Part shown: piece by piece, positions 24,001 through 30,000 of the stretch
Numbering within the stretch: the first letter of the stretch is position 1
Layout: each line of letters starts with the position of its first letter
From: a virus
Lineage: Duplodnaviria > Heunggongvirae > Uroviricota > Caudoviricetes
Length of the DNA stretch: 48,304 bases
Virus record (IMG/VR): IMGVR_UViG_2563366867_000009
Reading direction: 5' to 3' (one strand)
Position numbers: made by a program

Positions 24001-27000
24001 ACCGCCCTGCTGAACAGTACAGACAGGAGCTGTCGTCGGCGCGGGGATCCCCAGACGATACGATGATGTCGGGTGATTCCCGTCCCCTTTTGTGGCAATG
24101 GTCGCATCCGTCACTTTAGGAAAACGCCCGTCAGTGTAGTAAATACGCCCGTGGGGGTCCTGAGCGATCGGACTGCGGATCACATCCACCACATCCGGCC
24201 ATGCAAACCAGAAATCGTCACGGTAATGAAAAATTGTTTTTGGCTTAATTGTGAATGTTTTCTCAACCCCGGATATCTGACGTTCTGGTGTAATAACACC
24301 AAACCGGAAATGGCAGTCCTCCGCCAGTACAGCGGAATGCTCGGGCAGCATGGATGTCACAACGCGCGGCATCATCCCACGCATCGTGGTGATATCGATA
24401 TAGGGCATAGAAATTCCTTTGACTGCTTCAGGCTTAAAAATCAGGGGATTTATGATGGAATTCGCTAAAATCGCGATCGGTATCACTGCAACAGAGTGTT
24501 GCTATGATATTCTGGACAAGACGTAACAACTCACTAATTGTTATCAAACGTCTTTCTTCTGGTCGGGGAGCATGTTGCTCCCCTTTTTTTACTGCATTAC
24601 CACCGCAGCTGTAGCAACAAGAGCCAGCACACCACCAAGCCACACAAACAGCATGAAGCACATTGCGCCTGTGGTGTAACGTTTTCTCCCGTATCTCCGG
24701 TCTCTGTCTTTGTTCATCATCTGCACCTTCTGAATCATCAGAAGATGCCGCGCATCCGGCAGGACCGCCATCAGGCACCAACAAGCCGTCTGACGCTCAC
24801 ACCATACAGCCCGTTTTTCGCCATTCCCGTATACAGAAAGGTATTCACCGTCTTTGTGTTAATACCCATCTCACTGGCAAGGCGGCAGGGTCTCGACTGG
24901 CGGTAGACATAACCGAACATCACCACCATCTCTGACATCGTCAGCGGGCGGGCAGCACTGTTATACGTCCAGACGCCGTTGTGTATGGCATCACTTATCT
25001 GCTCACCATCACGGAGCAACTCCGCATCCAGTTGCAGAAAATGACGCCCCTGGAACATACAGCGCATCAGCCTGCCCAGCAGGCCATCACTGATTATCAG
25101 CCAGGATTCGTCAAAGTCCGGGATATAACGGCGGTTCTCCGGCAGGAAAAACTCCCTCGCCAGTATCACACTGTGCCCCTTCAGTAACGCCTGCAGACCA
25201 TACTCCAGATAGCGGTTCCTGGTAGCCAGAATCACCTTCATCGCAGCACCTTCCTGTTTTTTATGCCCCATGAAAAACGGCAGACCAGAGTCCTGCGCCT
25301 GCCGCCATACTTCATGTCACTTTCAGCAATTAAAACTCGAAGTTAACGCCCATGTTGTAGGACACATCGCCATCACTCGCTGCAATACCCGCTTTCGCTG
25401 CGGTCTGCTCGTTGAAACGGTAACCAACACCCACGGCAACAGCCTGTTTATCACTGTACCCCCCCAGGGCAGCAGTGGCGTTGAATTTCCCCACACTGTA
25501 CGGCTGGAAAAGCCCCGCCAGCGCTGCACTCTGTGCTGCTGCACGCTTCATCTCTTCGTGATTCTCACGAATTTGACGCTGCTGACTGTTCAGGCGTGCA
25601 TTATGCTCCTGCAACTGGCGAGTATTGGACTGAATAGCCTGTGTATTTTTAGTAACCCGGCGGTCAACGCTACCAACTGCATAATCAATACGGTCTGTTC
25701 TGCCAGACAGAGCAACGAGACCATCATTGACGGCGATAGTTTTAGTCGCACCTTCTGCACGGGTAAGTTTTCCGTCAGGGTTCACACCAACTGTCGTTCT
25801 GGAGTCTGTATATTCACGAGACTTTTTCGCTTCGACTACAAGGCGGGTATTCGTATCCTGAGCCAGTTGCTCAACACTGTCTTTTACACGGTCAACCTGA
25901 CGAACGGTTGCAGCATCTGAGGGACGAGTACCGTCACTCAGACCACCAAGCACCCGGGTTTTATAAGCCTTACCCGGCTCTGCTTCATAACCGATATAAA
26001 CCTCATTGTCACGGGTTGTGCGTGAATTAGCTCCTAATGCAACACTGTTTTTATTTGTTACTGTTGCCTTTGCCCCTAACGCAGTACCTTCTGTTGCATT
26101 TTTATCCACTTTTGCTTTGGCTCCTAATGCAACACCTTCAGTTGCATTTTCATCCACTTTTGCGTAATTACCTATAGCGGTACCATAAATAGCAGAACCA
26201 TCAACATAAGCAGCTGTTCCGGCGGCTGTTGAAGCATCTGCATAGGCATATGCTCCCACTCCCAGAGCTGTACTTTGTTTACCGTCCGCAGCAGCCCATG
26301 AGCCCACTGCTGTTGCAAATTTTTTATCCGCTCTGGCCCCTGTACCAACAGCTACTGAGAACTCACCAGAGGCTTTCGCATCGCTACCCAGAGAAACCTT
26401 CCCATTCTCCCCATCTTCGACGCTGAAACCTGTAATTTTTGTTCTCTGCAGACTGTATACTTTGTTATATACATCACGAACAACGCTATCAGTCATTCTG
26501 TGCGACTGAGACGGTCCATTCTTTTTTTTCTCAGCTGTTTGAGCAAAATCGTTCAGCGCACCGTCATGAATTGTGTACGTAATGCCACTGCCATTGATTA
26601 TTACATCCCCATTTGAATCAAATGTGAAAAGTGTCCTCTTGCCGTTGTTCTTCTCTTTTACTTCGTATTTGAAGTTACCATTATCGCCTGTCTTTACAAC
26701 TTCATAGGTATTCCCCCATTTATTGTTACCTGTGGCATACGGCACTGTGTATTTTTCTTCCTGCGCACTCACCCCACCACTCATCACCAGAAGCCCGGCC
26801 AGAGAAGATGACAGGAGTGTCATTGTAAACTTTTTACTCATTATGGATATCCTGTTAAATTATCTGTATACAAATCAGCCGCAACACCTCACACTCATAA
26901 AAAAGTCTGATTAATTACGGCTTTTTTCAGGATATTCCGAAAATAAATTTAAAAATTAATTTTATAAATTTAGGATTTGTCTTACATTATTCTGGGCATA

Positions 27001-30000
27001 CCTGCTCACGCATACGACCACACCGCCGGAACAGATATCAGAAAAAACTTACCCCAGTCAGACTTGCTGTTTCACATCTGCTTACACTGTAATTTGTGAA
27101 CAAAATTACAACATCAGAAAAAATTAACTATTCAGTTAACATAAAATATTTACAGGAGGAATAGTTCATGAGGGAAAGAAATGTTTCCCCCATATTTTTA
27201 TCTGTTATTCCTGTGCCCAGCCAACCCTGTATGCCAGTATCTCATCCGCACTGGTCAGCTTTTCCAGCTCTTTCTTCATGGTGCGCTGCCGGACGTGGAT
27301 TTCCATCCCTTTGGTAAACATCGCCTGCTCTGCAGCAGCACTCAGAGCAATCAGTGTTTCAGCGTCCATCGGTACGTCATTATTGTCCGCATCCGTCCAG
27401 AAAAACGCCTCCGGCAGTTTCCCCGCTTTCGCTGCCGCCACCGACGGCTCAAGACGCGTCTGCGTTGACTTCCCGTAGTCCCATTTACGCCCATTGTGCT
27501 CAAACGTGTAGTTCGCCGCTTCCATCGCATTACGCCAGGCGTTGATCCCGGCGGTTTTGAGTTCTCTGGCTTTTTCCGGGCTGATGGATGGCTGTACATA
27601 TTCTGCAATTTCACCGGCCTCTCCTCTCAGACAAGCGGCATAAATATCCCGCCCGTATGCTTCGGTATCGCTGGCTGTTGCAGTGAAAGGAACCGCCTGC
27701 TCAATGTGCTCAAACTTCACCATGCAATTGACAGCAGTGTGCTCTTTATCTGCCCATTGCGGATTGCTTATTTTTTCCACATTCATGTTCATCTCCTGTC
27801 TGTCAGTATGCGCGCTGGAACAGCCCGATGCTTTCATTGTCATTTGTCGACGTAATTTCATTACACACCATCCATGAGCCCGGAACTGAGGATAGGTTGC
27901 CGTCAATGCCATCGGTGTTAGCTTTCATATAGTTTCCGTTTTCGTCTTTGATTAGGGCGCATCGCTTAAGGCGTGAACCCGATACAGTTTCTCCTGGCTG
28001 ATAGGTTCTGCCGATGTCGGTTATATACGGGGCTAGTGCGGCAATAATGTATGTTCCGATGCTGTAAATTTCCCCGGGTACCAGCCTTCCGGTTGGCCCT
28101 TGTGGTCCCTGTGGTCCGGGTTCACCTGTCGGGCCCTGTGGACCTGTCGGGCCCTGTCTTCCTGTTTCTCCCTGCAAACCTCGTGGCCCCGTTTTACCCG
28201 CAGGACCTGCCGGACCAACCGGCCCCGGAACACCCTGTGCCCCCGCTGGACCCCTTTCACCTCGTGGCCCTGCCGGGCCTGCATCACCTTTGGGACCAGC
28301 TGCACCAGCCGGTCCCCGTGGGCCTGCGGGCCCCACTGCACCAGGTGCGCCAGGTTCCCCCCTGTCCCCCTTCGGTCCGGGGACTGCTGCCCGGGTTGCT
28401 GCCTCTTCTGCCTTCGTTTTTGCTGCCTGCACTTCTGCCATTACCGCTTTCACAGCCTTTGGGGTTGCCGCTTTTGTTTCATCATCGCTGTTGGTATCGC
28501 TGCTCAGCTGTACAACACCTTTCTGTGATGTGCTGGCATCCGGAACACTGGCGACACTGCCTGCGGGACCCGCAGGACCTGCGGGGCCGGTTTCTCCCCG
28601 AGGGCCTGCGGGACCTGCCGGACCTGTTGCGCCGGGTTCACCTTTATCCCCTTTCGGGCCGGTTTGCCCTGCCGGACCCTGTGGTCCGGGTGGTCCGGCC
28701 TCTCCACGTGGGCCGGTGTCACCTTTCGGCCCCGGCTCACCTCTCGGACCAGCATCCCCCTTTGGTCCCTGAGGCCCCCCCGGGTCTCCTTTTTCGCCTC
28801 TGGCCCCGGTTTCACCACGCGGCCCCATTGCTCCCTGTGGCCCGGTCGCACCACGTGGGCCAGATGGCCCTGTTGCGCCAGCTGGCCCCTGCACTCCCTG
28901 AGGTCCCCGTTCTCCTGTATCACCTTTCTGGCCCGGTATGCCCTGAGGTCCGCGCTCTCCCTGCTCACCTTTCTCCCCACGCGGACCCGCCGGACCTGTT
29001 TCACCACGAGGACCAGCATCACCTTTCGGCCCTGTATCGCCTTTAGGTCCTCGTGCATTCTCAGCCATACGTCTGGCTTCTTCAGCACTAACTGTAGCAG
29101 CCTCAGCACGTTTAAGAACGTCTCCGGCGGCCTCCTGAGCCACTCTGGCGGTTTCAGCATGTCGTCTGGCCTCTTTAGCGTCAGCTGCCGCTGCCTTTTC
29201 AGACTCACCTGCCCGGGTCGCCGCCTCTGCAGCCTCACTGGCTTTTTGTGCAGACTCCGTCGCTTTGCTGGTCGCAGCCTTCGCGCTTTCTGATGCAGTC
29301 TTCGCACTGGCAGCAGCGCTTTCCTTCGACTGTGAAGCCTGATTATTTTTCACCGCCGTGTCTTCGTTCAGACGACGAATCGTGGCAAGGTCATCCGCCA
29401 CATTGTTCTGTATCTGCCGGAAATCTGTCAGCAGTTCTCCGGGTATGCTCACCTCAACAAGACTGCGGCGTAACAGCATATTGAGCGTCACCGTACTTTC
29501 AGTCCCCTCAATACGCACACGTCCGTAGACAGCAGTCTTCCCTTTCACCGTCACAGAAACCGCATACTCCCCCGGCTCCAGCGTCATTCCGTAATACCCG
29601 CCGTCACGAGTCACTGCTGACGCACTGGTGCCGCTGAGCGCATCCGGTGAAACTGTCAGCGCCGTCAGGGTAATATTTGCGCCTGATATCGCCTCACCAT
29701 CAGGAGATTTCAGCGTCCCCGAAACAACAACACTCACATTCCACCTCCGTTAAACACCTTCTTGCGGGCAGACAATGCACTGTCTGCACCCTGTTTAATC
29801 CCGAGCTGCTCAACAAAACTCTGATAATGTTGTGCTGCCAGTCCTGACTCTGCACCACCGGCTGCATCCTTGCTGAATGCACGAAACAACATCCAGTCAA
29901 CCAGCGGGTTAACATAAGCCTCTTCCAGCGGTACAGGCGTGTCATCATCCTGCGTCAGAACATACACCGCCTCCGGAATGCGGCTGACCACAGCATCAAC

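Follow-up and report, generated by a model that had tools for sequence, protein, structure and literature searches.

The Eib adhesin cassette of a 933W-like prophage and the two candidate regulatory genes behind its terminator

What controls an adhesin whose expression depends on growth conditions, and do the genes that travel with it take part? The Eib adhesins confer resistance to serum, the ability to bind antibodies non-immunologically and a chain-like adherence, in commensal Escherichia coli and in E. coli strains that make Shiga toxin (STEC) and are negative for the locus of enterocyte effacement. The adhesin itself is well studied, which cannot be said of the control of its strongly condition-dependent expression, and the two genes always found after eib, orf-156 and orf-60, have to our knowledge never been characterised. 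These questions are raised by a locus in the 48,304-nt stretch of DNA held in IMG/VR record IMGVR_UViG_2563366867_000009 (Caudoviricetes), here called the window, to whose whole length the coordinates refer. The region is very probably an intact mobile Eib cassette of a 933W-like prophage, made up of a gene for an EibE-like adhesin, its own terminator, and orf-156 and orf-60 behind it. The features of the cassette and its borders are the following.

26842..27150, minus strand: AT-rich regulatory region upstream of eib, described by alignment, composition, inverted repeats and pattern search
25330..26841, minus strand: eib, EibE-like, predicted immunoglobulin-binding trimeric autotransporter adhesin of 503 amino acids (aa), with signal peptide, N-terminal domain, YadA head, stalk and YadA anchor
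25270..25316, minus strand: sense intrinsic terminator directly 3' of eib, a GC-rich stem followed by UUUUU, found by scan and folding and annotated as stem_loop in AF151674-6
24771..25241, minus strand: orf-156, candidate orphan regulator of 156 aa, modelled as a shortened (beta-alpha)4 receiver-like domain and a C-terminal GerE/NarL-type four-helix helix-turn-helix (HTH)
24589..24771 (60 aa), probable product 24589..24720 (43 aa), minus strand: orf-60, small tail-anchored inner-membrane protein, with homologues ORF-60A/C/D and PHROG 9340
24565..24590, plus strand: intrinsic terminator hairpin, GGGGAGCA-TGT-TGCTCCCC then T7
27205..27792, minus strand: orf-191-like DUF4376 gene of the tail-fibre assembly or tail-fibre family (Pfam DUF4376; PHROG 1141 'tail fiber protein'; ORF-191C/D/E in GenBank records)
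22783..24408, minus strand: virion gene like L0124 of 933W, downstream border of the cargo slot (PHROG 511; L0124 in 933W, L0124D in P-EibD)

Three co-oriented open reading frames (ORFs) are found on the minus strand, 25330..26841 (503 aa), 24771..25271 (166 aa as the longest ORF) and 24589..24771 (60 aa). Comparison with phage records by megablast showed the region to match, at 89-94% nucleotide identity, the Eib locus known from the ECOR-9 prophages P-EibC, P-EibD, P-EibE and P-EibA (GenBank AF151674-AF151676 and AF151091), whose records annotate orf-191, a stem-loop, eib ('immunoglobulin-binding protein'), a second stem-loop, orf-156 and orf-60. The cassette was deposited in 2000 under the names eib/orf-156/orf-60 with its stem-loops already annotated, and its description goes back to Sandt & Hill 2000 and 2001 and Sandt, Hopper & Hill 2002, as cited in PMC12511318 and PMC8065619. 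The defining layout, with orf-191 upstream and orf-156/orf-60 downstream, is present in the window; the gene order is identical at the EibG locus of STEC strain JNEC-KY208, and phage PhiR12_3 (ECOR13) matches over the whole stretch at 93.5% identity. The locus is therefore a re-discovery of an already described and deposited Eib cassette, in a common allele.

The DUF4376 gene is the upstream border of the cargo slot; downstream, the L0124-like gene, which also follows the cassette in P-EibD, likely starts at ATG 24408, preceded by AAGGAA, the alternative being GTG 24486 as annotated in 933W, and a tail-tip fibre gene lies beside it. The cassette is thus cargo in a variable slot that extends from the tail-fibre/ORF-191 genes to the L0124-like gene of a 933W-like (Sepvirinae-type) prophage. 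These flanks bear out an earlier, sequence-only reading, which had placed an intact second adhesin module between a tail-fibre assembly gene and tail genes; the word 'second' was also correct, given that a paralogue disrupted by an insertion sequence (IS) lies at ~4466-7730. By sequence comparison the mobile unit runs from ~27150 to the hairpin at 24565, since an AT-rich region of about 300 bp upstream of eib is common to both cassettes of the window.

That the 503-aa protein is an Eib-like trimeric autotransporter, as had been claimed, was confirmed by its domains and by 90% identity to EibE (with one 16-residue repeat indel); identity is 80% to EibC and 70% to EibD. Pfam finds four stretches of YadA_head (PF05658) and a YadA_anchor (PF03895) at residues 445-503 (E 2.4e-15), and the YadA anchor structure 2lme is matched with E 1e-17. 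The protein thus has the anchor as well as the head repeats and Eib-homologous stalk of the Eib subgroup of trimeric autotransporter adhesins (TAAs). The crystallised EibD chains 2xqh and 2xzr match residues 151-412 (E 7e-88) and 380-434 (E 8e-11), and stalk segment 347-412 is nearly identical to the immunoglobulin-binding part of EibD. The first 27 residues are the same as in EibC, EibD and EibE, on which basis a Sec signal peptide is predicted. The exact 503-aa protein occurs on 157 public contigs, under the name 'YadA-like family protein'. Its 90% identity to EibE suggests that the adhesin of the window binds IgG Fc or IgA non-immunologically, an expectation to be held with some caution given that some relatives of EibG (Cla) do not bind IgG (PMC13534694).

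Directly behind eib stands a strong sense terminator (free energy -28.8 kcal/mol, z-score -3.7; stem and UUUUU at ~25306-25272), in a region that has 11 terminator-like sites where 3.4 are expected from shuffles. It is kept, with pair-preserving changes, in every lineage examined (EibA, EibD, EibG, GER2, the different prophage type of locus L023 and the plasmid locus L017), and the same layout of TAA gene, terminator, ~35 nt, Shine-Dalgarno sequence and orf-156 recurs in other prophage types and in plasmids. The terminator ends ~30 nt before the start of ORF-156, which leaves no room for an orf-156 promoter. Because a conserved sense terminator precedes both genes and promoter space is lacking, the expression of orf-156 and orf-60 probably depends on partial read-through and would be low compared with that of eib. 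The start of ORF-156 itself is best placed at ATG 25241 (156 aa) rather than at 25271 (166 aa), because all homologues begin with MKVIL and AGGAAGGTG sits 5 nt upstream; the sequence-only reading had credited the gene with a good Shine-Dalgarno sequence. The ATG at 25271 is itself part of the T-run in the eib terminator.

ORF-156 is 100% identical to ORF-156C, and the exact protein is found on 730 contigs. The ratio of non-synonymous to synonymous substitution rates (dN/dS) between the two lineages in the window is 0.18, indicating purifying selection and therefore a functional protein. No sequence match was obtained in Pfam or NCBIfam (even at E <= 10), in PADLOC or in the PDB, and in PHROGs both ORF-156 and ORF-60 fall only into families of unknown function; ORF-60 likewise had no match in Pfam, NCBIfam or PADLOC. 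Among 5.8 billion proteins only 44 clusters of relatives were found, all E. coli and 'hypothetical', and a profile search of 1.84 billion proteins returned only the protein's own small family, with 36 representatives. The family profile gave only four weak matches to PDB sequences (E 0.055-0.5), all of them LuxR-family/GerE proteins.

The structural model, built from 24 homologues (predicted local distance difference test, pLDDT, 89.6; predicted template modelling score, pTM, 0.84), has four beta-alpha units followed by four helices. In a Foldseek comparison with the PDB the top 43 matches were all response regulators of the NarL/FixJ type (RcsB, EvgA, DesR, FixJ, StyR, VpsT, NarL), the best with E 6.5e-4 and probability 1.0, and the C-terminal four-helix HTH, of the GerE-type fold, superposes on the DNA-binding domains of NarL and GerE at 1.7-1.9 A. 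The receiver-like domain is not that of a canonical phospho-accepting receiver: the positions of the acidic pair are held by T7 and N9, both nearly invariant, and beta-5 is missing with its lysine, while the aspartate after beta-3 (D52) is kept. On the model, ORF-156 is probably a DNA-binding protein with a NarL/LuxR fold whose receiver-like domain would not be phosphorylated in the usual way. The designation 'LuxR-type regulator', used in the sequence-only reading, is thus right for the predicted fold and for the probable mode of action; it does not extend to membership of the GerE/LuxR_C HTH sequence family, to which ORF-156 shows no match, or to a canonical receiver. A match of residues 82-108 to streptococcal Protein G (NGVWTYNSAARPLTMSEMV against DGVWTYDDATKTFTVTEMV; PDB 1pgx, E 0.59) was judged to be due to chance, curious as it is in an immunoglobulin-binding locus; the pattern concerned, GVWTY..A..T..EMV, maps in the model to the linker and the first helix of the HTH.

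The start of the 60-aa ORF-60 overlaps the ORF-156 stop as TGATG, and the two genes are translationally linked. The ORF ends in a C-terminal hydrophobic helix, and its core (a basic stretch, RKRYTxGAMCFMLFVWLGGV and the hydrophobic tail) is conserved in three lineages, the A/C/D-type, the E-type and L023, with a dN/dS of 0.25, and of 0.14 against ORF-60C. In the 17 codons before the internal Met-Met there are four non-synonymous and no synonymous differences from ORF-60D, and these codons have no counterpart in other lineages. Since this N-terminal extension is not conserved, AGAAGGTG precedes the internal ATG at 24720, and the PHROG 9340 profile is 43 aa long and matches residues 18-60, the conserved product is probably a protein of ~43 aa (24589..24720) with a basic cytoplasmic N-terminus. 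The small membrane ORF proposed earlier is real, as judged from its dN/dS of 0.25, though the conserved product probably has 43 aa and not 60. A tblastn search of phages with the 43-aa core gave no match, the query being too short and of low complexity. A type I toxin-antitoxin interpretation of ORF-60 was considered and rejected, as the L0124, eaa and P-EibE contexts show no conservation of the region from which a convergent antisense RNA would come.

Homologues of ORF-156 are also found elsewhere. In two further settings, homologues of 66-71% identity follow other YadA-anchor genes at a distance of 82 nt. One is a lambda-like prophage (L023-L025) that also has an ORF-60 homologue; the other is Rep3/CcdAB plasmids (L017-L019), where they stand beside a large Saa-like TAA and ORF-60 is absent. 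In locus L017 a BamE/OmpA-like gene adjoins the large TAA. More distant homologues (50-63% identity) stand alone, with neither a TAA nearby nor ORF-60: directly upstream of the kps group-2 capsule region (KpsF/E/D/U), by genes for PapB-like and Hha proteins, and, beside the hpa cluster, in an island that has PerC-like genes. Their positions, in the coordinates of their own loci, are:

L020-L022, 5001-5516: stand-alone ORF-156 homologue
L010, 2658-3152: stand-alone ORF-156 homologue
L006, 6001-6495: stand-alone ORF-156 homologue

The family is thus repeatedly tied to surface-structure loci, which supports a regulatory role.

Expression of Eib is strongly regulated, with induction in static growth and stationary phase, and the local regulators responsible are not named in the published accounts (PMC4352079, PMC5450701); IbrAB activates Eib according to Sandt et al. 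2002, as cited in PMC8065619 (reference 174). The region upstream of eib has 35-36% GC compared with ~53% in its flanks, and alignment showed it to be conserved between both cassettes of the window and in P-EibC/D/E. It contains an AT-only palindrome at 26944-26972, an 8-bp palindrome, TGTATACA, at 26868-26875, 31 nt before the eib ATG, and the palindrome TTAACTGAATAGTTAA at 27125-27140, which marks the 5' edge of the cassette in C/D/E-type loci. In the EibA, C, D and E and GER2 loci TGTATACA keeps the same distance to the start codon, even where other upstream sequence differs; it is reduced to TGTACA in the L023 lineage and absent in the plasmid lineage. TGTATACA at -31 and TTAACTGAATAGTTAA may be regarded as candidate operators. 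An operator shared by all lineages was rejected, AACTGAAYAGTT being confined to the C/D/E-type upstream region and TGTATACA missing from the plasmid lineage. The AT-rich composition of the region and its lack of a consensus sigma-70 promoter fit an activator-dependent or silenced expression of eib, and they agree with what has been published on its dependence on IbrAB and its static and stationary-phase induction.

The paralogous cassette, placed beside an intact eaa-type gene, comprises the following features.

~4466-7730, minus strand: paralogous first cassette, with eib split by an IS
6933..7418 and 5231..5839, minus strand: N-terminal and C-terminal (with anchor) fragments of the interrupted cassette-1 eib
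5901..6991, plus strand: IS transposase ORFs in cassette 1
4671..5144, minus strand: E-type orf-156, 69% identical to the copy in the intact cassette
4492..4617, minus strand: small membrane ORF of 41-45 aa
274..4335, minus strand: eaa-type serine-protease autotransporter, intact, 1353 aa (Peptidase_S6 and Autotransporter domains), following cassette 1

Traces of the cassette are also present in Shiga toxin (Stx) phages. L0123 of 933W (L013, 3444-3940) corresponds to a truncated ORF-156, with the 3' end of orf-60 and the hairpin kept before L0124; orf24 of Stx2 phage 86 (L004, 3135-3281), which adjoins the cor gene, is a frameshifted ORF-60 relic, and an orf-156 relic like that of 933W is found in ~150 Stx phage records. 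From this sequence comparison, the L0123/hairpin region of 933W-type Stx phages appears to be a relic of the Eib cassette.

The plus-oriented hairpin terminator that had been proposed at 24565..24590, abutting the stop codon of the small ORF, was also found as described. It has eight pairs (six of them G-C) and a 3-nt loop (-15.4 kcal/mol, z-score -3.3), and its T7 run overlaps the ORF-60 stop codon; the G+C-rich stem, short loop and 3' T-run of a Rho-independent terminator are present on the plus strand only, the minus-strand transcript of the cassette having A7 and then the stem, without a U-tract. The stem recurs unchanged in 933W and Stx2 phage 86, between flanks that have diverged to ~60-85%. 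P-EibE keeps the outer stem but has another loop: after the orf-60 stop come A7 and GGGGAG-CTGGTGA-CTCCCC, and beyond them the sequence is unrelated. Only the 5' half remains in L023, and loci of the eaa context lack the hairpin (EibA, EibC and, in the window, cassette 1). As the stem is kept across diverging flanks and relics, the hairpin belongs to the 3' end of orf-60 and its structure is under selection.

Between orf-60 and the L0124-like gene, the spacer (24409-24564) is itself highly structured on either strand (z-score -4.4 to -4.75); 933W and phage 86 share its last 85 nt at 99-100% conservation, and the part beside the hairpin is not conserved. A plus-strand mini-gene of 24 codons at 24452-24526, MMEFAKIAIGITATECCYDILDKT, was rejected as a conserved protein, since in 933W the frame is closed after 17 codons and has a different C-terminal part. 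No Rfam family matched the module at E <= 1; in the window as a whole, a single curated RNA family was found, the small RNA STnc100 at 44579-44795 on the minus strand (150.6 bits, E 1e-33). A second terminator-like hairpin of the plus strand occurs at 27172-27189, just after the orf-191 stop, and consists of GGGAAAGAAATGTTTCCC followed by a T-rich tail, with an A-run before the stem in the sense direction; at this place GER2 carries another hairpin. Terminators of reverse orientation may recur behind the genes of this late operon. Upstream of orf-191, the tail-fibre gene at 27803..29737 (minus strand) contains long collagen triple-helix repeats of 65-70% GC, together with a phage tail-fibre repeat and a carboxypeptidase-regulatory-like N-terminal domain.

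How might these elements act together? We tentatively propose that ORF-156 and the ~43-aa ORF-60 form a cassette-borne regulatory pair, fed by read-through, which sets the expression of Eib and of related TAAs (for example the static and stationary-phase induction of Eib), with the reverse terminator acting as an insulator and the L0123/hairpin region of 933W as a relic of the arrangement. The main reading is more general: eib is probably active in the lysogen, where it would serve lysogenic conversion, and some transcripts, a minority, would pass its terminator and give low amounts of ORF-156 and ORF-60. With its NarL/LuxR fold ORF-156 would bind DNA, its receiver-like domain acting without the usual phosphorylation, and together with the membrane peptide ORF-60 it would most likely tune the expression of the cassette or of other surface structures. 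Several results weigh against this main reading. Pattern searches found no palindrome common to all lineages, a promoter scan of the upstream region found no sigma-70 consensus promoter for eib on the minus strand, and the literature search returned no paper mentioning ORF-156 or ORF-60 and no experiment linking either to eib expression. Moreover, some homologues have no TAA anywhere nearby, so the target of ORF-156 need not be eib. ORF-156, with or without ORF-60, could instead regulate host genes for capsule, fimbriae or flagella and merely travel with the adhesin gene, a possibility that also deserves no more than tentative credence; it would account for the homologues of 50-63% identity that stand by kps, PapB/Hha and PerC-like genes without TAA or ORF-60, but the tight spacing of TAA, terminator and ORF-156, repeated in four contexts, suggests co-selection with the adhesin gene.

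A different role for ORF-60, that of a biogenesis or envelope helper for the trimeric autotransporter rather than of a regulatory partner, has precedent in accessory genes beside TAAs, SadB helping SadA and TpgA helping AtaA. The position of this inner-membrane peptide directly downstream of a TAA gene in three lineages would agree with such a function, as would the BamE/OmpA-like gene by the large TAA in L017; it is nonetheless improbable, because ORF-60 has neither a lipobox nor a periplasmic domain (only 2-3 residues follow the helix), is absent in the plasmid context, and Eib proteins are functional when cloned alone (PMC12511318). That both genes are decaying passengers without current function might be suggested by the truncated ORF-156 of 933W and the frameshifted ORF-60 of phage 86, yet where eib is kept both genes are intact and under purifying selection, with dN/dS values of 0.18 and 0.25, and the exact ORF-156 protein recurs across its 730 contigs, which makes this reading very unlikely. 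As for the hairpin, termination by it is possible only for transcripts running antisense into the cassette, and on the sense transcript it would be at most a 3' stem-loop. An antisense insulator, the role suggested in the sequence-only reading, would be reasonable in a mobile cassette, with no convergent transcription unit found here: ORF and promoter scans detected neither a plus-strand gene nor a convincing plus-strand promoter to its left. This lends some plausibility, short of an even chance, to an action on the sense transcript, in which the hairpin stabilises or defines the mRNA end or pauses the polymerase; it follows the orf-60 stop wherever it is kept, even with the changed loop of P-EibE, and folds equally on both strands. 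The conserved run of 5-7 A residues 5' of the stem in the sense direction speaks against such an action, as it provides a U-tract on the plus strand only, in the manner of a textbook plus-strand terminator.

Beyond the locus as previously described, the analysis adds the fold assignment of ORF-156, the probable 43-aa ORF-60, the conserved design with a leaky terminator, and the reading of L0123 and the hairpin of 933W as a relic. The fold of ORF-156, the conservation of ORF-60 and the leaky terminator together provide a concrete and cheap hypothesis for the regulation of Eib.

Compared with known systems, the cassette combines familiar and divergent traits. With the ECOR-9 P-Eib loci it shares the gene order orf-191, eib, stem-loop, orf-156 and orf-60, and with P-EibD also the slot upstream of the L0124-like gene; it differs in being a mosaic of an EibE-like adhesin and C/D-type orf-156 and orf-60, and in the second, IS-disrupted cassette that the prophage carries beside an eaa gene. 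The adhesin resembles EibD (2XQH, 2XZR) and the YadA-type adhesins in its YadA-like head, neck, coiled-coil stalk and four-strand anchor, whereas its overall identity to EibD is only 70% and a 16-residue head-repeat insertion is present relative to both EibD and EibE. ORF-156 is predicted to share with the NarL/FixJ regulators (RcsB, EvgA, NarL, VpsT) a flavodoxin-like N-domain and a four-helix HTH; unlike them it has no sequence-family match, no acidic Mg-binding pair and no partner kinase, its N-domain has four beta-alpha units, and its family does not extend beyond a few dozen E. coli clusters. The phage morons lom and bor of lambda, whose own promoter and terminator lie inside the late operon, are likewise cargo of deviant base composition among late genes, with a terminator of their own and a surface protein useful to the lysogen; what sets the Eib cassette apart from them is the candidate regulator pair behind a leaky terminator and the reverse-oriented terminator at its 3' end.

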